Source: Clostridiales bacterium
GTDB taxonomy: Bacteria; Bacillota; Clostridia; TANB77; CAG-508
Direction of reading: 5' to 3'
DNA: 64,000 nucleotides
Assembly (NCBI GenBank): GCA_003534295.1
Contig: DPDV01000007.1
Span: forward strand, 4,127 to 68,126
How positions within the stretch are numbered: the first letter of the stretch is position 1; every line of letters starts with the position of its first letter. The position numbers were made by a program, and so were the translations under genes. Under the pieces are notes generated by a model. It saw only the letters and a list, made by a program, of their open reading frames with translations. It searched no databases and was not told the DNA's origin. Shown piece by piece: positions 3,712 to 61,568 of this stretch.

Positions 3712-4407
3712 CTATATTTTTATACCTTCAAGTTCGTGCTCATATTTTTTATAATTAGGACAATACTTTTCAATTATATTCCAAAAACCTTTACTGTGAG
3801 TTTTATATTTTAAATGACAGAATTCGTGTATTACTATATAATCTATAATTTCAGACCTATATCTTGCTATACAAGGGCTAAAGGAAATACATCTATCATC
3901 AAAAGAAAATTTAGCAATAGTATTACCTAAGTCTTCAATGCAATAATCTTCTGGAGCAATGCCTAACAATAACCTAGCTTTTTCCATAGATTTTTCTAAT
4001 TCATTACAGCAAACTTTGAAATATAACTTTTCCATTAATATTCTCAAGATATCAGAATCTTCAAGTTTTTTATATTTAGCAGGTAAAATAACCTCAACTT
4101 TACCATTGATTAAATTGATTGTTGGTTTAATATGGTTTTTATAAAGGATGCAAATATGGTAATCATTTCCTAGTAATTTAATAACACCTTTGTCTAAAAA
4201 AGAATTGCGATTCTTATTATACTCTTCAATTTTGGAAATAATCCATTGCCTTTTTTCAATTATAACTTCTTGAATATGTCGTCTAGAAACATACCAAGGA
4301 GCGTTAACAATAACCTCATTACCATCTACGCAAATACATAAAGCGCCAGACATAGCTTTGTTCACAGTATATGGAATTACGTTATTTTTAAATTTTAAAA
4401 TACTCAT
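3712..4407 (-). CDS. YgjP/DUF45-family M48-like zinc metallohydrolase
   Basis: HEFCHL (HExxH) motif near the C-terminus. About 230 aa, with layout typical of the YgjP family. Start assigned to MSILKFKN. Confidence 0.6.
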   Translation of the reverse strand: MSILKFKNNVIPYTVNKAMSGALCICVDGNEVIVNAPWYVSRRHIQEVIIEKRQWIISKIEEYNKNRNSFLDKGVIKLLGNDYHICILYKNHIKPTINLINGKVEVILPAKYKKLEDSDILRILMEKLYFKVCCNELEKSMEKARLLLGIAPEDYCIEDLGNTIAKFSFDDRCISFSPCIARYRSEIIDYIVIHEFCHLKYKTHSKGFWNIIEKYCPNYKKYEHELEGIKI

Positions 4408-4510
4408 AAGAATTACCTCCAAACGAAAATGATTTCTCAAAAACTTTGTTCGATTATGATTATACAAAATATTGTTCGGTTTGTCAATAACTTTTTAAAA
4501 AAAATATTAG

Positions 4511-4572
4511 GACAATTAGGGACAGTCCCCAAATGTTTCATTTGCACATTTGGGGACTGTCCCTAATTGTTC
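4511..4572. repeat. perfect palindrome with 25-bp arms (CAATTAGGGACAGTCCCCAAATGT / 9-nt loop / reverse complement)
   Basis: Read directly. 4512-4536 pairs perfectly with 4546-4570. T-runs flank it on both strands. It sits in the divergent promoter region between the YgjP-like gene and ylxM. Confidence 0.8.
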
Positions 4573-4596: not shown

Positions 4597-4632
4597 TATT
4601 GACAAATTGATAAAAATAGTGTAAAGTATAAT
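4597..4632 (+). promoter_or_regulatory. putative sigma-A promoter for ylxM-ffh (TTGACA, 17-nt spacer, extended -10 TGTAAAGT)
   Basis: TTGACA at 4597-4602. The downstream TAGTGTAAAGTATAAT has the same 15-mer (TAGTGTAAAGTAAT) as the repeated leader motif. Confidence 0.35.
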
Positions 4633-5028: not shown

Positions 5029-6381
5029 ATGGCTTTTGAAGGTTTAAGTTCTAAATTACAAGCTATAACAAATAAATTAAGAGGTAAAACAAGGATTACA
5101 GAATCTGATTTAAAAGAAATGTTAAGAGAAGTAAAGCTTGCTTTACTTGAAGCAGACGTTAATTATATGATTGTAAAAGAATTTATAGGAACTATACAGG
5201 AAAAGGCTTTAGGGCAAGATGTATTAAAGTCATTAACCCCAGGACAACAGGTTGTTAAAATCGTAAAAGACGAATTAATAGAACTATTAGGAGGAACAGA
5301 GAGCAAAATTAATTTCACTCCAAATCCACCAACAATAATAATGCTTGTGGGATTACAAGGCTCAGGAAAGACAACAACAGCTGGAAAACTGGCAAATATT
5401 TTACGAAAGCAAGGAAAAAAACCATTGCTTGTTGCTTGTGATGTATATAGGCCAGCAGCGATAAAACAACTTCAAGTAGTTGGAGCACAGCTAAATATTC
5501 CGGTATTTGCAAATGAAAATTCGAAAGATGTAGTACACATAGCTAAACAAGCGTTGAATGTGGCAATTAGTAAATTAAATGATGTAATAATACTAGATAC
5601 TGCAGGACGTTTACATATTGACCAAGAGTTAATGACTGAATTGAAGAATGTAAAATCAAATGTAAAACCACATGAAATATTATTAGTAGTTGATAGCATG
5701 ACAGGGCAAGATGCTGTGAATGTTGCAACAGCGTTTAATGAGCAATTGGGAATTGATGGAGTAATACTTACTAAATTAGATGGTGATACTCGTGGTGGAG
5801 CTGCAATTTCAGTTAAAAAAGTTACTAACAGACCTATAAAATTTGTAGCTACAGGAGAAAAATTAAGTGATATAGAAGTGTTTCATCCAGATAGAATGGC
5901 ACAAAGAATCTTGGGAATGGGAGATGTTCTGTCTGTTATAGAAAAGGCAGAAGAGGCATTTGATATTGAAGAAGCAGAAAAAATAGAAAAGCAATTGAAA
6001 AAGAAAGAATTAGACTTAGATGATTATTTAATTCAATTAAGACAGATAAAAAAAATGGGGTCTTTTTCATCCTTATTAAAAATGATACCGGGAATGAATC
6101 AACTTAAAGATATAAAAGTTGATGATAAAGAATTTGAAAAAATAGAATCAATTATATGTTCTATGACAAAAGCAGAGAGAAAGAATCCTAGAATTTTAAA
6201 TGGAAGCAGAAGACTAAGAATTGCAAAAGGTAGTGGTACTACAGTACAGGAAATAAACAAATTTATGAATTCCTTTGAAATGACACAAAAGATGATGAAA
6301 AAAATGCAATCTAACAAAGGCGGAATGAAAAATATGTTAAAAAATATGGACATAGATTCATTAAAAAATATAAAAATGTAG
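5029..6381 (+). CDS. ffh: signal recognition particle protein Ffh
   Basis: GLQGSGKTTTAGKLA P-loop, SRP54 GTPase domain and Met-rich C-terminal M-domain. 450 aa. Confidence 0.95.
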   Translation: MAFEGLSSKLQAITNKLRGKTRITESDLKEMLREVKLALLEADVNYMIVKEFIGTIQEKALGQDVLKSLTPGQQVVKIVKDELIELLGGTESKINFTPNPPTIIMLVGLQGSGKTTTAGKLANILRKQGKKPLLVACDVYRPAAIKQLQVVGAQLNIPVFANENSKDVVHIAKQALNVAISKLNDVIILDTAGRLHIDQELMTELKNVKSNVKPHEILLVVDSMTGQDAVNVATAFNEQLGIDGVILTKLDGDTRGGAAISVKKVTNRPIKFVATGEKLSDIEVFHPDRMAQRILGMGDVLSVIEKAEEAFDIEEAEKIEKQLKKKELDLDDYLIQLRQIKKMGSFSSLLKMIPGMNQLKDIKVDDKEFEKIESIICSMTKAERKNPRILNGSRRLRIAKGSGTTVQEINKFMNSFEMTQKMMKKMQSNKGGMKNMLKNMDIDSLKNIKM

Positions 6382-14311: not shown

Positions 14312-14385
<74 letters not shown>

Positions 14386-14423: not shown

Positions 14424-14495
14424 AATCAATCAGTAAAATGGTTGATTTTTTTTGCAAAATGTTGGAGTGATTTTAATCACCCGTCCTTCGAAGCG
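14424..14495 (+). promoter_or_regulatory. divergent copy (A) of the repeated promoter-plus-hairpin leader motif
   Basis: CAGTAAAATGG...GTTGGAGTGATTTTAATCACCCGTCCTTCGAAG aligns to copies B, C and D. It carries compensatory stem changes (GTGAT/ATCAC versus GGCGAT/ATCGCC). Confidence 0.35.
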
Positions 14496-14557
14496 TGGGC
14501 GAGCAAGTTCGCCCCTACACATTGTTTGTATCAAATTAATACCTACAACTTATAATC

Positions 14558-14646
14558 TATGGAGCAAATCGCATACAAGTTACGAACTAAATTCTCTTTC
14601 TAAAAACATTATATACAAAATTTTCATGAATTTCAATGAAAGTATA
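14558..14646 (+). repeat. family-2 terminal module copy 1 (left end of unit E1)
   Basis: TATGGAGCAAATCGCATACAAGTTACGAACTAAATTCTCTTTCTAAAAACATTATATAC...CAATGAAAGTATA, near-identical to the copy at 32752 and related to the copy at 25558. Confidence 0.6.
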
Positions 14647-14719
14647 TAAAGCTATCAAATTAGATGATATAATTTGCTTAAAATTACAAATAACTTATTT
14701 TAAGAGGATGTGGTTATAT

Positions 14720-15339
14720 ATGTTAGATATTAATTTTAATCAAATCATTGAAATGATTGAAAAGCGAAAAAATAATGCTTACAGAAAAGTAAATGAAGAA
14801 ATGATTTTATTGTATTTAGAAGTTGGTAAATTCTTATATGAACTAAGAGAAAATAGTAATTATGGTGATAAAATAACAACAAAAGGCTCAGATTTTATGA
14901 AAAATAATTATCCTAACATAAAGGGATTTACTAAAAGAAATATAGAACGTATGATTCAATTTTATAGTACTTATAAAGATGATGAGATTGCGACACCAAT
15001 GGTGACGCAATTGTTCTGGACAAATAATTTGTTGATTTTGAGTGGAGCTAAAAGCAAAGAGAAAAGGCATTTTTATTTAAAATTATCTATTAAAAATAAT
15101 TATTCAAAATGAATTTATATTTAGAAGCCCTAGATAGAGATGTGAAAAAAGAACAAGAGAATCCAAGTGTTGGAGTTATATTATGTAGTTCTAAAGATGA
15201 AGATGTTGTTGAATATTCAATTAGTAAAAATATGTCTCAAACTATGATTTCTGAATATAAGTTAAAATTAATAGATAAAAAAATATTAGAAACAAAACTT
15301 AAAGAAATGAAAAATTTGATAGATAATAATGATAAATAG
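14720..15339 (+). pseudogene. YhcG/DUF1016-family (PD-(D/E)XK nuclease) gene with internal deletion and frameshift
   Basis: ORF1 (to 15112) matches the YhcG N-terminal region (INFNQIIEMIEKRKNNAYRKVNEEMILLYLEVGKFL...RNIERMIQFY...QLFWTNNLLIL). ORF2 (15109-15339) matches the YhcG C-terminal tail (PSVGVILCSSKDEDVVEYSI...). The central nuclease core is missing. Confidence 0.55.

Positions 15340-34261: not shown

Positions 34262-34268
<7 letters not shown>
33984..34268 (+). repeat. family-1 terminal module copy C (with recombinase start stub on the minus strand at 34102-34173), directly abutting the tRNA-Gly 3' end
   Basis: Near-identical to 21583-21856 apart from a short CTAGCTAGTTAGACATATATT insert. 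Its terminal TGGAGCG is the CCA end of the tRNA at 34262-34335. Confidence 0.7.
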
Positions 34269-34335
<67 letters not shown>

Positions 34336-37217: not shown

Positions 37218-39035
37218 ATGATAAACGAAAACATAAGAAATATAGCAATTATAGCACACGTAGACCATGGCAAAACAACACTTGTAGATGCACTTTTAAA
37301 ACAAAGCCATATATTTAGAGAAAATGAGCAAGTACAAGAAAGAGTAATGGATTCAAATGATTTGGAGAAAGAAAGAGGAATAACAATTCTTTCTAAAAAC
37401 ACATCCGTAATGTACAAAGACATCAAAATTAATATAGTAGATACACCAGGACATGCTGACTTTGGAGGAGAAGTTGAACGTGTTTTAAAAATGGTTGATG
37501 GTGTACTTTTATTGGTGGATGCTTTTGAAGGCCCAATGCCTCAAACAAGAGAAGTATTAAAAAAATCTCTTGCATTAAATTTAAAACCAATAGTAGTAAT
37601 TAATAAAATAGATAGACCAGGTGCAAATCCACTAAAAGTAGTTGACCAAGTATTAGAATTATTTATAGAATTAAACGCAACAGATGAACAACTAGATTTT
37701 CCAGTTGTTTATGCATCTGCAAAAAATGGAATTGCAAAAATGAACTTAGACGAAGAAAGCGATAATGTAAATTGCATTTTTGAGACCATAATAAATAATA
37801 TTGAGCCTCCAAAATGTGATATAGATGGAACAATGCAAATGTTAGTATCAAATATAGACTATGATGAATATTTAGGAAGGATAGCAGTAGGAAGAGTAGA
37901 GAGAGGAACAATAAACAATGGAACAACAGTAGCTGTTTGCAAAAAGGATAAAACAGAACAAGGCAAAATAGCAAAATTATTTACATATGTAGGATTAAAG
38001 AGAACAGAGGTTGAAAATGTTTCTGCAGGGGATATAGTTTGTCTATCAGGTATTTCGGATATAAACATAGGGGATACAATTTGTGATGTAAATAATCCAG
38101 AAAAAATAGATTTTGTAGATATAGATGAACCAACAGTATCTATGACATTTAGTGTAAACAATGGTCCATTTGCAGGAAAAGAAGGTCAATTTGTAACCTC
38201 AAGACATATAAGAGATAGATTATTTAAAGAGCTAGAAAGAAATGTTAGTTTAAGAGTAAAAGAAACAGATTCTGCAGATAGTTTTGAGGTTTGCGGTCGT
38301 GGAGAATTGCACTTATCTGTTTTAATAGAGACTATGAGGAGAGAAGGTTTTGAATTATTAGTTTCTAGACCAAAAGTAATAATAAAGGAAATAGATGGAG
38401 TTAAATGTGAGCCTATGGAAAGACTTGTAGTTAACGTTCCAGATGAATGCATAGGTAATGTTATAGAAAAATTGGGAAGAAGAAAAGCAGAAATGCTTAA
38501 TATGGAACCAGCAGAAGTTGGACATACAAAGGTAGAATTTAAAGTTCCTGCTAGAGGGTTAATTGGTTATAGAACAGAATTCTTAACAGATACAAAAGGT
38601 GTAGGAACAATGAATAGTATTTTTGACTGCTATGAGCCATATAAAGGTGAAATACAAGCAAGAACAAGAGGAGTACTTGTGGCATTTGAACAAGGAACAT
38701 CAATAACATATGGATTATATAATGCTCAAGAAAGAGGAGAGTTGTTTATAGGACCAGGTGTTGATGTATATGAAGGAATGATAGTAGGCATAAATTCTAG
38801 AAATGAGGATATATCAATAAATGTATGCAAAGAAAAACACCTAACTAATACAAGGGCTTCTGGTTCAGATGACGCTTTACGTTTAGTGCCACCAATTCAG
38901 TTATCACTAGAAAAAGCAATAGAATTTATAGAAGAAGATGAGTTAGTGGAAGTTACACCAAAAAGCTTAAGACTAAGAAAGAAAATATTAGATAATAAGA
39001 CAAGAGAAAGAATGGCGGCAAGAGCAAAGAAATGA
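37218..39035 (+). CDS. typA: translational GTPase TypA/BipA
   Basis: IAIIAHVDHGKTTLVDALL G1 motif, DTPGHADF G3 motif, 605 aa. Confidence 0.9.
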   Translation: MINENIRNIAIIAHVDHGKTTLVDALLKQSHIFRENEQVQERVMDSNDLEKERGITILSKNTSVMYKDIKINIVDTPGHADFGGEVERVLKMVDGVLLLVDAFEGPMPQTREVLKKSLALNLKPIVVINKIDRPGANPLKVVDQVLELFIELNATDEQLDFPVVYASAKNGIAKMNLDEESDNVNCIFETIINNIEPPKCDIDGTMQMLVSNIDYDEYLGRIAVGRVERGTINNGTTVAVCKKDKTEQGKIAKLFTYVGLKRTEVENVSAGDIVCLSGISDINIGDTICDVNNPEKIDFVDIDEPTVSMTFSVNNGPFAGKEGQFVTSRHIRDRLFKELERNVSLRVKETDSADSFEVCGRGELHLSVLIETMRREGFELLVSRPKVIIKEIDGVKCEPMERLVVNVPDECIGNVIEKLGRRKAEMLNMEPAEVGHTKVEFKVPARGLIGYRTEFLTDTKGVGTMNSIFDCYEPYKGEIQARTRGVLVAFEQGTSITYGLYNAQERGELFIGPGVDVYEGMIVGINSRNEDISINVCKEKHLTNTRASGSDDALRLVPPIQLSLEKAIEFIEEDELVEVTPKSLRLRKKILDNKTRERMAARAKK

Positions 39036-39095
39036 TAGTGTAAAGTAATCCATGAAAAATATAGGGGCGATTTTAATCGCCCGCACTTCAAAGAA
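39032..39095 (+). promoter_or_regulatory. copy B of the repeated promoter-plus-hairpin leader motif
   Basis: ATGATAGTGTAAAGTAATCCATGAAAAATATAGGGGCGATTTTAATCGCCCGCACTTCAAAGAAATA, immediately before the RBS of ORF 39107. Confidence 0.4.
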
Positions 39096-39106
39096 ATAAA
39101 GGAGGA

Positions 39107-39481
39107 ATGAGAATGAGTAAAAAAGGCTTTCATGGGAATGGGAGATATTATTATGAAAACGGATATCGTTCAAAAAAAGCAGTGAGAGACACTTATCCAG
39201 AAGGAAATGATGAAGAAATTCGTGGAATTAATAAAGTAAGAGATGAACTTATGCGAAAAATTGATAGTGTAACAAGAGCTTATGCAAGTAAGTGTGCAGG
39301 AAGAATGTTAAGTGATGTGGTTAATGAGATATATGGTATATTTGCAGAAGAATGTGAGAAACATAGAGAAGCTGGTTATGTAGAATCCGTTAGCGAAGAA
39401 ATAATTAAAAATAGAATAAAAGATGTATTAATTAGAGAATATAATAAGCTAAATGCTAGTGGAGAGCATGATGAAAGATAG
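39107..39481 (+). CDS. hypothetical protein
   Basis: 124-aa ORF with an AAGGAGG RBS. No recognised domain. Confidence 0.4.
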   Translation: MRMSKKGFHGNGRYYYENGYRSKKAVRDTYPEGNDEEIRGINKVRDELMRKIDSVTRAYASKCAGRMLSDVVNEIYGIFAEECEKHREAGYVESVSEEIIKNRIKDVLIREYNKLNASGEHDER

Positions 39482-55014: not shown

Positions 55015-55121
55015 AAATAAATTACCTCCAAAAACTATATTAACATAAAATGGCAAAAAAGTCAATATATGTAAACAATAATTATTAATAATAAAATATA
55101 AAAAAATATGCAAAATATAAT

Positions 55122-55195
55122 ATGATAGTGTAAAGTAATCTATGAAAATGTAGGGGCGATTTTAATCGTCTGTACTTCGAAGAAATTACTAAAGA
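55122..55195 (+). promoter_or_regulatory. copy C of the repeated promoter-plus-hairpin leader motif (upstream of splB)
   Basis: ATGATAGTGTAAAGTAATCTATGAAAATGTAGGGGCGATTTTAATCGTCTGTACTTCGAAGAAATTACTAAAGAAG. The C-to-T change in the 3' stem keeps a G-U pair. Confidence 0.4.
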
Positions 55196-55217
55196 AGAAC
55201 ACAAGGAGAGAATTTAT

Positions 55218-56216
55218 ATGTTTTTACCAAAGCAAATTTTATATGAAAAGAATGTTAAAAATTACGAGTTGGGAAGAGAATTATTAGAACAATACAAAGA
55301 CATCCCTAAAATGATTATAGAAAACCATAATAATATACCTGAGATGAGAGGTAAACAAAATTGTGAATTTGTAGACATGAAAAAGAACTTGATTATAGGA
55401 ATAAGAAAGACACATAAATTTGTTCCAAACCATAAGACTTCTGATTTTCTAGTACCATATACTTCTTCTGGTTGTACAGCAATGTGTATGTACTGCTATT
55501 TAGTGTGTAACTATAATAAATGTTCATATTTAAGGCTGTTCGTAAATAGAGAAGACATGCTTTCAAAAATAATAAAAGTTGCTAATCAAAGTGACAAAGA
55601 ATTAACTTTTGAGATTGGTAGCAATAGTGATTTAATATTAGAAAACACAATTACAAACAATTTAGAGTGGACAATACCAAAATTTGCCCAAAATAATAAA
55701 GGATATTTAACGTTTCCAACTAAATTTGATATGGTTGAGCCAATACTAAATTTAGAACATAATAATAGAGTTATAGTAAGAATGAGTGTAAATCCAAGTA
55801 TAATTATACAAAAGGTGGAGCTTGGTACATCTAGCTTGGAGAAGAGAGTTGAAGCGGTAAATAAGTTGAAAGATGCAGGATATAAAGTAGGGATATTAAT
55901 AGCACCAATTATTTTAATTGATAACTGGCAAGATAAATATGAAAAGTTAATAATATATCTTAAGGAGAAATTGAATGATAATGTTAAAAAAGATGTATTT
56001 TTTGAACTTATTTTTATGACATATAGTTATGTTCATAAAATGATAAACAATGATGCATTTCCCAATGCAATAAAATTATTTGACGAGAATATAATGACAG
56101 GAAGAGGCAAAGGAAAATACATGTATAAAGAAAAAGTAAAAGATGAGGCAAGATTATTTTTTGAGAAAAAAATGAAAGAATATTTTCCAGATAATAAAAT
56201 AATGTATATAGTGTAA
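55218..56216 (+). CDS. splB: spore photoproduct lyase (radical SAM)
   Basis: CTAMCMYCY radical-SAM cluster in the SPL-typical context. 332 aa, with SplB-like overall layout. Confidence 0.8.
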   Translation: MFLPKQILYEKNVKNYELGRELLEQYKDIPKMIIENHNNIPEMRGKQNCEFVDMKKNLIIGIRKTHKFVPNHKTSDFLVPYTSSGCTAMCMYCYLVCNYNKCSYLRLFVNREDMLSKIIKVANQSDKELTFEIGSNSDLILENTITNNLEWTIPKFAQNNKGYLTFPTKFDMVEPILNLEHNNRVIVRMSVNPSIIIQKVELGTSSLEKRVEAVNKLKDAGYKVGILIAPIILIDNWQDKYEKLIIYLKEKLNDNVKKDVFFELIFMTYSYVHKMINNDAFPNAIKLFDENIMTGRGKGKYMYKEKVKDEARLFFEKKMKEYFPDNKIMYIV

Positions 56217-58032: not shown

Positions 58033-58110
58033 TAAGATAGTGTAAAGTAATCTATGAAAAATGTAGAGGCGATTTTAACTGCCTGCACTTCGAGGAAATT
58101 ACTAAAAAAG
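58033..58110 (+). promoter_or_regulatory. copy D of the repeated promoter-plus-hairpin leader motif
   Basis: AAGATAGTGTAAAGTAATCTATGAAAAATGTAGAGGCGATTTTAACTGCCTGCACTTCGAGGAAATTACTAAAAAAG. Confidence 0.4.
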
Positions 58111-58142: not shown

Positions 58143-58356
58143 TTATGAGTAAGTTAATAGTATATTTATATGGTGGTATAGACCTGTTCCAGCAATAAGA
58201 ACATTTTTAACAAGAAATGACTTGTCAGGTAAAACTATTAAACCATATGCAACAAATGCAGGATGGTTAGGCAGAACATTTAAAGAAATAGAAAAATTAT
58301 GTCCTAATTCTAATGTGGAACAGGGAATGAACATTGTTGAAATATTAATAAAATAA
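58143..58356 (+). pseudogene. flavodoxin-like (Flavodoxin_4-type) gene remnant: N-terminal MSKLIVYLYGG stub, then a frame-shifted C-terminal segment
   Basis: The second frame reads ...IKPYATNAGWLGRTFKEIEKLCPNSNVEQGMNIVEIL, resembling the C-terminus of short flavodoxin-family proteins. The middle ~90 codons are absent. Confidence 0.4.
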
Positions 58357-59206: not shown

Positions 59207-59225
59207 GTTTGTAGAGAGTAATTTT

Positions 59226-60435
59226 TGAAGTGAACCCAAATTATTAGACAAAAAAGTTTAATAAGGAGGGTTCATTTTATGTCTAAATATTCAAATAATT
59301 TTAAATTAGAAGTAGTAAAATATTACAATAAACAACATTACGGATATCAATGTACAGCAAATAAATTTAACATTCCATCTCTAACAACCGTAAAAAAATG
59401 GGTAAAAAAATATAATGAACATGGAGAAAAAGGATTATTAAAAAATTTAAAGTCATCTTATAGTGGTGAATTTAAGCAAAGTGTGATAGAATATATGCAT
59501 AAAAACCATTTATCAGCTCAAGAAACAGCAATACACTTTAATTTAGGAAGTGTAGACCAAGCAACTAGATGGGAACGTATATATTATGAGGAAGGACCAC
59601 AAGTTTTCTATGAGAAGCGACGTGGTAGAAATAAAAATATGAGTTCTAAACCAAGAAAAAAGAAATTATCTAAAGAAAATGAAGAAGATTTAATAGAAGA
59701 AGTACAAAGACTTAGAATGGAAAATGCATACTTAAAAAAATTGCAAGCCTTAGTTCAGAAAAGGACAAAGCCAAAACAATCGAAAAAGTAATTGTAATAG
59801 ATGAATTAAGGCATGAGTTTAGATTAGAGGCCTTGTTAAAATATGCAGAAGTAACGAGGAGCACATTTTATTATCAATTAAACAGAATCAAAGAACCAGA
59901 TAAATATAAAGAAATAAAAGAAGAAATTACAGCTATTTACCATGAAAATAAAGGAAGATATGGATATAGAAGAATTACATTAGAATTACATAACAGAGGA
60001 TTTATTATCAACCATAAAACAGTCAGAAGACTTATGAAAGAATTAGAATTACAATGTTTTGTAAGAGCACAAAAGTATAAATCATATAAAGGTGAAGTAG
60101 GAAAAATTTGTGATAATCTTTTAAATAGAGAATTTGAGACTAAAGAACCAAACCAAAAATGGGTTACAGATGTAACAGAATTTAAAGTTCATAATGAAAA
60201 ACTTTATTTATCACCAATATTAGATTTATTTAATGGTGAAGTAATTAGCTTTAATTTATCAAGACATCCAGTATTTGCACAAGTGGTTGATATGTTAGAA
60301 AAAGCATTTAATAAGATACCAGATAATACAAATTTAATATTACACTCAGACCAAGGTTGGCAATATCAAATGAAGCAGTATCAACACTTATTAAAAGAAA
60401 AAGGAATTAGACAAATTGTCATCAAAATAAAATGA
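59226..60435 (+). mobile_element. IS3-family insertion sequence, right end deleted (orfA 59279-59791 intact, orfB truncated after about 200 aa)
   Basis: OrfA is an HTH protein with a leucine zipper. OrfB has the DDE D residues (WVTDVTEF, HSDQGWQY) but stops at GIRQ before the catalytic E region. The AAAAAG slippery-like sequence lies at the orfA/orfB overlap. The left end starts TGAAGTG. Confidence 0.7.
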
Positions 60436-61462: not shown

Positions 61463-61568
61463 AGAGAAAGGAAATTTGTAGATGTTGGGTGTCCTTATGT
61501 AAGGACACCCAGTTCATAAATAATTTTAGAAAGGTGATTATAATATGGAAAAAATCAATAAAACATAA

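Follow-up and report, generated by a model that had tools for sequence, protein, structure and literature searches.

A short repeated element built around a GC-rich hairpin was analysed in a 64-kb stretch of the forward strand of contig DPDV01000007.1 from a Clostridiales bacterium (assembly GCA_003534295.1), the whole of which is referred to here as the window. A first-pass annotation had described the element as a promoter-plus-hairpin leader module repeated upstream of four unrelated genes, and the presence of a repeated unit with a GC hairpin directly upstream of unrelated genes, in leader or intercistronic positions, was confirmed for the copies and for the genes downstream of them. The copies in the window were named A to D. 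The hairpin core GGGGCGATTTTAATCGCCC was matched at 39064, 55153 and 14464 when up to three mismatches were allowed (shuffled sequences gave 0 matches), and the 5' part TGATAGTGTAAAGTAATC was matched at 39033, 55123 and 58035. An nhmmer profile built from the four copies scored these same copies at E = 1e-20 to 1e-14 and returned no other comparable match in the window.

Copy B (39033-39097, plus strand) is a 3'-truncated unit composed of the 5' arm GATAGTGTAAAGTAATCCATGAAAAAT, the tag ATAG (39061-39064), the hairpin GGGCGAT-TTTA-ATCGCCC (39065-39082) and the tail CTTCAAAGAAAT. Its first bases overlap the stop codon TGA of typA (39033-39035), the ribosome-binding site (RBS) AAGGAGG follows directly after the unit, and an ATG is located at 39107; downstream lie a 124-aa open reading frame (ORF) without Pfam match and then an O-methyltransferase gene. 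The copy is present at this site in all five metagenome contigs that span it, which belong to the same species (identity 100% or 99.3%). Copy C (55124-55194, plus strand) is a near-full unit in the divergent spacer upstream of splB (ATG at 55218), the gene encoding SplB (PF20903). It carries the tag GTAG at 55150-55153, a hairpin at 55154-55171 with two G-U positions and an outer stem AGTAAT/ATTACT, and a TATAAT box (55116-55121) ends 2 nt 5' of it. A leader peptide was rejected as an explanation, because the ORF MKNIGAILIARTSKK of copy B is broken in copy C by a 1-nt deletion. Copy D (58036-58109, plus strand) is also near-full, with GTAG at 58063-58066 and a degraded hairpin at 58067-58084, and is directly followed by a truncated Flavodoxin_4 pseudogene (58156-58350, profile positions 83-137 of 155, E = 3.8e-8) and then by a SAM methyltransferase gene.

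A diverged copy had also been placed at 14424. A related element does exist there (copy A, 14455-14527, just past a tRNA-Gly gene and its terminator), but it lacks the 5' part and consists of two hairpin units placed tail to tail. Unit 1 (14455-14493, plus strand) reads AAAATGTTG-GAGTGAT-TTTA-ATCACCC-GTCCTTCGAAG, and unit 2 (14486-14527, minus strand) is an inverted unit of a second hairpin family with GTAG at 14518-14515 and GGGCGAACTTGCTCGCCC at 14514-14497; the two share the palindrome CTTCGAAG. Downstream of this doublet a DUF1016/YhcG PDDEXK nuclease gene is represented by two overlapping ORFs (14636-15112 and 15109-15339), probably as a result of a frameshift. The window holds two tRNA-Gly(UCC) genes, at 14312-14385 (plus strand) and 34262-34335 (minus strand), in opposite orientation and 20 kb apart.

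The dispersed family and its target duplications

One genome per species was scanned with a pattern that left the stem bases free, and 71 matches were obtained in 12 species represented by metagenome-assembled genomes (MAGs). The hosts are without exception uncultured Clostridia of low GC content, one of which carries the label Tenericutes; a single MAG (BRZ_BL bin74) accounted for 41 of the 71 matches and a sister MAG for 13. Viral contigs contained zero matches to the same pattern, on which ground a phage origin was rejected. In 476 kb of loci fetched from MAG and metagenome contigs (designated by L and a number below), a profile of the full unit gave 113 unique hits, of which 70 are full length. 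The host clade comprises small-genome uncultured Clostridia of about 27% GC (genome, 27.6% GC), and synteny between the fetched loci and the window is almost absent.

The unit is about 78 nt long and is arranged as (A)GATAGTGTAAAGTAATTTATGAAAAAAT-GTAG-GGGCGATTTTAATCGCCC-GTTCTTCGAAGAAATTACTTAAAAC(A), in which GGGCGATTTTAATCGCCC is the hairpin given above for copy B. Its ends, as set by the flanking duplications, are GATAGTG... on the left and ...CTTAAAAC(A) on the right. Near the 5' end AAGTAATTT pairs with AAATTACTT near the 3' end, forming a subterminal 9-bp inverted repeat; part of the 5' arm repeats the 3' tail in inverted form, so that the whole unit folds as one long imperfect hairpin. 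The consensus fold was predicted at -18.8 kcal/mol (z = -3.3), with the A-rich tail and the Shine-Dalgarno sequence (SD) left unpaired. The family is non-coding and multi-copy, and in size it agrees with MITEs (transposable elements of the miniature inverted-repeat type). In one locus (L020) units form a tandem array with a period of 79 nt.

Comparison of loci between the two sister MAGs revealed 11 shared insertions and four orthologous sites that are filled in one MAG and empty in the other. The clearest pair is formed by L019 (filled) and L061 (empty). The empty site reads TTGACA-17-TATAAT-cttttt-AAAGTTAA-GAGAGGAG-...ATG, and in the filled site AAAGTTAA stands on both sides of the unit as an 8-bp target duplication. 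For 37 copies with definable ends, perfect 8/8 flanking repeats were found in 9 (24%), compared with 0.9% when flanks were paired at random, and a match of at least 7/8 was found in 38%, compared with 7.6%. The duplications are AT-rich, and together with the empty sites they conform to what is expected of MITEs. The first-pass annotation had set its regulatory module against the possibility of an insertion sequence (IS) or MITE terminal repeat, and the 8-bp duplications and the empty orthologous sites essentially identify it as a repeat of the IS or MITE kind. In copy B the unit is cut at ...CTTCAAAGAAAT and continues straight into AAAGGAGG; because the 8 nt preceding the unit are also AAAGAAAT, the sequence suggests that the truncation arose by a deletion between the tail and the right-hand duplication.

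The 8-bp duplications point to a staggered-cut transposase of the DDE type. A parent IS would be recognised by the termini GATAGTGTAAAG... and ...CTTAAAAC. Solo 5' arms in L026, L030, L068 and L074 were considered as IS ends and rejected, since they proved to be units with internal insertions or deletions. The only transposase in the window is an IS3-family remnant (59279-60435), which is not related to the repeat family and consists of two ORFs, the first with HTH_28/HTH_32 and the second with HTH_21 and rve. The sequence TGAACCC... near 59223 may be the left inverted repeat of this remnant. Target duplications of IS3-family elements are typically 3-5 bp rather than 8 bp. The remnant was rejected as the mobiliser, because its left boundary (TGAACCC, about 59223) is unlike the ends of the repeat and the duplication length differs.

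One further locus is noted here. Positions 334-921 of L022 (UMGS1657) are 100% identical to positions 55124-55711 of the window from the first base of copy C onwards, and the upstream sequences are unrelated; the breakpoint, which falls exactly at the repeat, reflects either recombination or an assembly chimera.

The hairpin core and RAYT genes

The definitions of repetitive extragenic palindromic (REP) sequences and of REP-associated tyrosine transposases (RAYTs) were taken from published work (PMC3733652, PMC2817692), in which the main REP superfamily is defined by a GTAG tag (PMC3733652). In nearly all copies of the present family GTAG stands immediately 5' of the stem; the tags before the hairpins of the window are ATAG (B), GTAG (C and D), GTTG (A, unit 1) and GTAG (A, unit 2). 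The core is a hairpin of 18-25 nt with a stem of 7-9 bp and about -12 kcal/mol, and it agrees with REP sequences in its palindrome and copy number. Only 5 of 75 unit copies lie inside ORFs, the others being extragenic or at locus edges.

The same genomes hold other GC hairpins in which the GTAG tag and the CTTCGAAGAAATT tail are kept and the stems are different but fully complementary (GGGCGAACTTGTTCGCCC; GGGTCGGCG/CGCCGACCC; GGGTCGCCG/CGGCGACCC; GGGTCGCTG/CAGCGACCC). Tail-to-tail inverted doublets, resembling the REPIN and bacterial interspersed mosaic element (BIME) arrangement, occur in copy A of the window and in L029, L067, L048 and L075, and mixed arrays of different GTAG hairpins in L018, L024, L047, L057, L060 and L068. 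Single units, inverted doublets and mixed arrays together constitute the BIME/REPIN pattern.

RAYT-type transposases co-occur with the GTAG hairpins of this clade. A decayed RAYT gene was found in L074; its reconstruction matches PF01797 over the whole profile (24.8 bits), matches NCBIfam NF047646 ("REP-associated tyrosine transposase") at E = 2.8e-18, which is below the equivalog cut-off, and has thousands of Y1_Tnp homologues. Its closest homologue, P0001, is intact on metagenome contig L077 along with three full units, and another intact RAYT (P0006) is present in the goat MAG RGIG1848, which also holds doublets. Each of these three RAYTs is associated with an inverted GTAG palindrome pair of another hairpin family. 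Such pairs bracket the HUH-coding segment at 5151-5176 and 5316-5341 of L077 and at 3907-3931 and 4275-4300 of L078. In P0001 both palindromes are in frame within the intact ORF and encode VGVAALGDP and GSPKAATP, respectively; in P0006 one is located upstream of the ATG and the other inside the ORF. This is an uncommon layout for a REPtron.

In L074 a 5' arm is joined in frame to the RAYT remnant (MKNYNY...), and the arm was therefore examined as a possible start of the RAYT gene. This was rejected, since the intact P0001 begins MQSPRRKDIRLKNYNY without an arm upstream, and the fusion in L074 must therefore be secondary, having occurred at the AAAAAT microhomology. Solo 5' arms fused to RAYT remnants were recorded on the minus strand at 7823-7710 of L059 and 6798-6770 of L074, with the microhomologies CTATGAA and AAAAAT, respectively, and these fusions suggest that illegitimate recombination readily affects the 5' arm. 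A second family of repeats, TGTTTTTGTGCGATTGCGAAGCAATCTGTACATGTGGCGAAGCCACTTTTCTTAT, which contains two small hairpins, was observed in L074 at about 6690-6640 (minus strand) and near 75-1, and in L059 at 8000-7945; it sits inside the RAYT pseudogene of L074 and at other places.

Placement relative to genes and competing explanations

The placement of the family is strongly non-random. Among 75 unique full copies, spacers between co-directional genes contained 53 in sense and 1 in antisense orientation, 3 lay in divergent and 3 in convergent spacers, 5 in ORFs and 10 at locus edges. The end of the unit was separated from a start codon bearing an SD by 8-28 nt for 52 of 63 copies (median, 21), while the distance from the upstream stop codon ranged from -18 to 392 nt; the tight downstream spacing was kept in 28 of the 35 cases with more than 40 nt between the upstream gene and the unit. 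The SD follows the right-hand duplication within 0-5 nt, and neither the SD nor the ATG, which differ from locus to locus, is part of the repeat. By rough ORF calls, about 83% of copies fall in the SD-adjacent windows that make up about 10% of intergenic DNA. We know of no described repeat family in which about 83% of copies lie 8-28 nt before a start codon together with a 53:1 sense bias. Roughly one third of the copies lie between cistrons within operons. Some insertions follow the native -10 or the start of transcription and precede the SD, and others occupy the gap that separates a stop codon from the SD of the next gene, so that the unit should be transcribed with the gene. On the plus strand the hairpin is not followed by a U-tract, in agreement with the earlier statement that the element is not a terminator. 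The minus-strand hairpin GGGCGATTAAAATCGCCC is followed by the T-run CTACATTTTTT and scores as terminator-like.

We consider it probable that the repeat is a REP-derived, MITE-like selfish element, non-autonomous and co-transcribed with its neighbours as a leader or intercistronic hairpin. It is not a shared regulatory switch, and the regulatory reading of the element largely fails. The family itself has not been described previously, and the kind of selfish repeat to which it belongs is already known. A REP-type palindrome (GTAG plus a 7-bp GC stem) joined to a 5' arm forms a mobile unit that has spread through this clade of Clostridia. It inserts with 8-bp duplications next to an RBS in sense orientation, and the host promoter and SD stay in place; according to the mechanism proposed, it would then be carried as a passenger within the mRNA leader or intercistronic spacer. 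Antisense insertions would be purged, as an intrinsic terminator would silence the downstream gene; antisense copies may thus be missing at least partly because the reverse complement presents a hairpin plus T-run that would terminate transcription. The RNA hairpin may incidentally protect the 5' end of the message or act as a processing site, which would be a side effect.

Several observations weigh against this interpretation. The left end carries five extra bases (GATAG), because of which there are no clean terminal inverted repeats (TIRs) of the kind expected of a MITE, and target duplications are not reported for REPs in published surveys such as the 2013 GTAG survey, so that neither the REP nor the MITE label fits fully. 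A search of about 540 kb gave no autonomous partner or IS with matching ends, and no DDE-type transposase for the element was found. There is no RAYT gene in the 64-kb window, and the hairpin family of the window flanks none of the three RAYTs described above. The excess of SD-adjacent copies is poorly explained by random insertion plus purging, which implies targeting or positive selection. As the G-rich strand carries 74 of 75 copies, the genes are almost all co-oriented and the GC skew of the window is positive throughout, the orientation cannot be separated from the replication or coding strand. Orthologous copies are 95.8% identical, compared with 93.0% for their mostly coding flanks, and constraint or gene conversion could fit this conservation better than pure junk would.

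These last points bear on the proposal that the unit is a selected 5'-leader cassette, the hairpin upstream of the SD being kept for its benefit to the gene. The benefits could be stability against RNase J/Y, insulation of the RBS, uncoupling of translation via three-frame stops, or an intercistronic processing site. The proposal is favoured by the tight SD and start spacing whatever the distance to the upstream gene, by the near-exclusive sense orientation, by orthologous copies that are no more diverged than coding flanks, and by a stable fold that leaves the A-rich tail and the SD free; moreover, every reading frame of TGATAGTGTAAAGTAA contains a stop codon, and the stop of the upstream gene is overlapped or adjoined by about 21 of 70 copies. 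Against it speaks the pattern of change within the stem. Selection on RNA structure had been argued from compensatory changes in the window, and the GTGAT/ATCAC double change of copy A and the G-U pairs of copy C do exist; over 63 copies, however, 91.1% of cells were paired against 90.9% in shuffles, with 4 against 2.5 both-side changes, so that covariation does not exceed that of the controls. Changes to G-U (20 cells) are as frequent as pair-breaking changes (19), as neutral C-to-T decay on either strand predicts, and the argument for structural selection is thus not borne out. In addition, copies persist in truncated (B) and degraded (D) form and even before a pseudogene (D), sister species manage without the unit at the four orthologous sites, and the downstream genes are functionally unrelated. 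A selected cassette is accordingly considered unlikely. We are similarly doubtful that the element targets, in sense orientation, the 8 bp that directly precede the SD, which would call for either a targeting mechanism as yet undescribed for REP/RAYT or MITE systems or positive selection throughout the genome. If it did, a REP-derived hairpin would serve as a portable 5' leader for a sizeable fraction of the genes in a reduced genome, and a REP-type unit would be able to insert with a staggered-cut target duplication.

A portable promoter, in which the 5' arm TAGTGTAAAGTAAT would serve as a -10, extended or not, in the manner of Correia elements or Neisseria REP2, is very improbable, although the arm holds three TAnnnT hexamers and shares 13 nt with the ylxM promoter, and some copies lie in divergent intergenic regions that need a promoter. 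The first-pass annotation had derived a promoter from a match to that of ylxM. A 13-nt identity, ATAGTGTAAAGTA, is indeed shared by the 5' arm and positions 4616-4628 (plus strand), within the ylxM promoter TTGACA-17-TAAAGT, but the properly spaced -10 there is TAAAGT, 17 bp from a perfect TTGACA; the site is not a scored member of the family (nhmmer E = 23), and by our own estimate the chance probability of an exact 13-mer match in the window is about 0.01; the identity may be a relic or chance. A consensus scan limited to sigma-70-type promoters found none on the plus strand of copies B, C and D or of the consensus copy, and a -35 box would have to lie beyond the repeat, in sequence that is not conserved. 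At the L019/L061 locus the complete native promoter lies upstream of the insertion. A perfect TATAAT occurs at most 26 nt upstream of 8 of 33 promoter-proximal copies compared with 7.8% of AT-rich control windows (intercistronic copies, 0 of 28), and the intercistronic third of the family likewise speaks against the arm as a promoter; the claim that the element carries one is not upheld. A sporulation promoter (sigma-G/F or other) for splB was rejected as well, as inspection by eye gave no convincing match and the family shows no tie to sporulation genes; it precedes dozens of unrelated genes, the splB copy being therefore one of many, and the suggested sporulation link is not supported. Least probable is a ligand- or protein-responsive leader with a riboswitch-like regulon. 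A conserved sequence in the 5' untranslated region (UTR) of many genes and the stable predicted fold would suit it, but Rfam gave no hit at the gathering threshold and, around copy B, only two weak and unrelated below-threshold hits at E up to 10. The lack of covariation and the unrelated gene set are contrary to such a regulon, and near-identity over 78 nt with duplications and empty sites indicates recent transposition rather than an ancient regulon.

Comparison with known repeats and other features of the window

The element resembles the REP/REPIN/BIME and RAYT systems (E. coli REP, Pseudomonas REPINs and Stenotrophomonas SMAG) in having GTAG directly 5' of a GC palindrome, many extragenic copies, several hairpin families per genome, inverted doublets and mixed arrays, and Y1/HUH RAYT genes in the clade that are associated with GTAG palindromes. 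It differs from them in its host, a 27%-GC lineage of Clostridia, and in its extra 5' arm and 8-bp duplication, and the action of RAYTs on its hairpins is only putative. Neither Clostridia nor Firmicutes are mentioned in the text of the 2013 GTAG survey. Many bacterial intergenic repeats are located at gene 3' ends (Delihas review), whereas the present element lies upstream of start codons in sense orientation.

With MITEs such as the Neisseria Correia elements, pneumococcal RUP and B. cereus bcr1 it shares a length below 200 bp, the non-coding nature, duplications and filled and empty sites, as well as a long hairpin fold, co-transcription with neighbours and a frequent position 5' of genes (PMC3184786). 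In contrast to MITEs, it has no clean TIRs, no parent IS that could be found, a REP-type core, and an extreme 53:1 sense bias with SD-proximal position; Correia elements carry functional promoters, whereas none is detectable here. Neisseria REP2 and the Borrelia IR-A/IR-B repeats, which are likewise located upstream of many unrelated genes and have internal stem-loops and 5'-UTR character (PMC3184786), are the closest precedent for the module envisaged in the first-pass annotation. Those repeats include promoter, RBS and ATG, whereas the SD and ATG of the present element lie outside it and no promoter was seen; REP2 lacks TIRs and is unrelated to REP sequences (PMC3184786). Mycobacterial MIRUs are also intercistronic, occur in polycistronic mRNA, overlap the ends of flanking genes, have GC-rich internal inverted repeats, and are known from filled as well as empty sites, with short direct repeats (PMC3184786). 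They differ in their translation-coupling small ORFs, 4-bp repeats, lack of a GTAG hairpin and unrelated host phylum. The occurrence of MIRUs as tandem arrays is a further likeness. The pneumococcal SPRITE resembles the element in that a hairpin plus U-run resembles an intrinsic terminator and this property shapes the genomic distribution; in the present family, by contrast, the terminator-like strand is the antisense one and the copies lie in leaders. A core hairpin with the GTAG tag, duplications of 8 bp and a position strictly near the SD and in sense orientation only are not found together in any of the systems compared.

For annotation, the probable origin given above would mean that dozens of near-identical 5' leaders in common uncultured gut Clostridia are transposon insertions and not a regulon, a riboswitch or a shared promoter. 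The host range of GTAG-tagged REP/RAYT systems would extend to a low-GC lineage of Clostridia, and mechanistically the unit would be a composite that is built on a REP hairpin and behaves as a MITE with 8-bp duplications. The placement bias is robust, and it makes the family a testable case either of site-targeted insertion beside the RBS or of a selfish hairpin co-opted as a leader of mRNAs.

Two further palindromic features of the window were recorded. Between a minus-strand gene (3712-4467) and the ylxM promoter lies a perfect palindrome (4514-4567) with arms of about 24 bp, caattagggacagtccccaaatgt...acatttggggactgtccctaattg, which may be a bidirectional terminator or another repeat. Just after an HD-domain gene, at 61484-61515, there is a GTTG-tagged hairpin with a perfect 9-bp stem and a loop of 6 nt (GGGTGTCCT tatgta AGGACACCC), which may be a member of another REP-type family.

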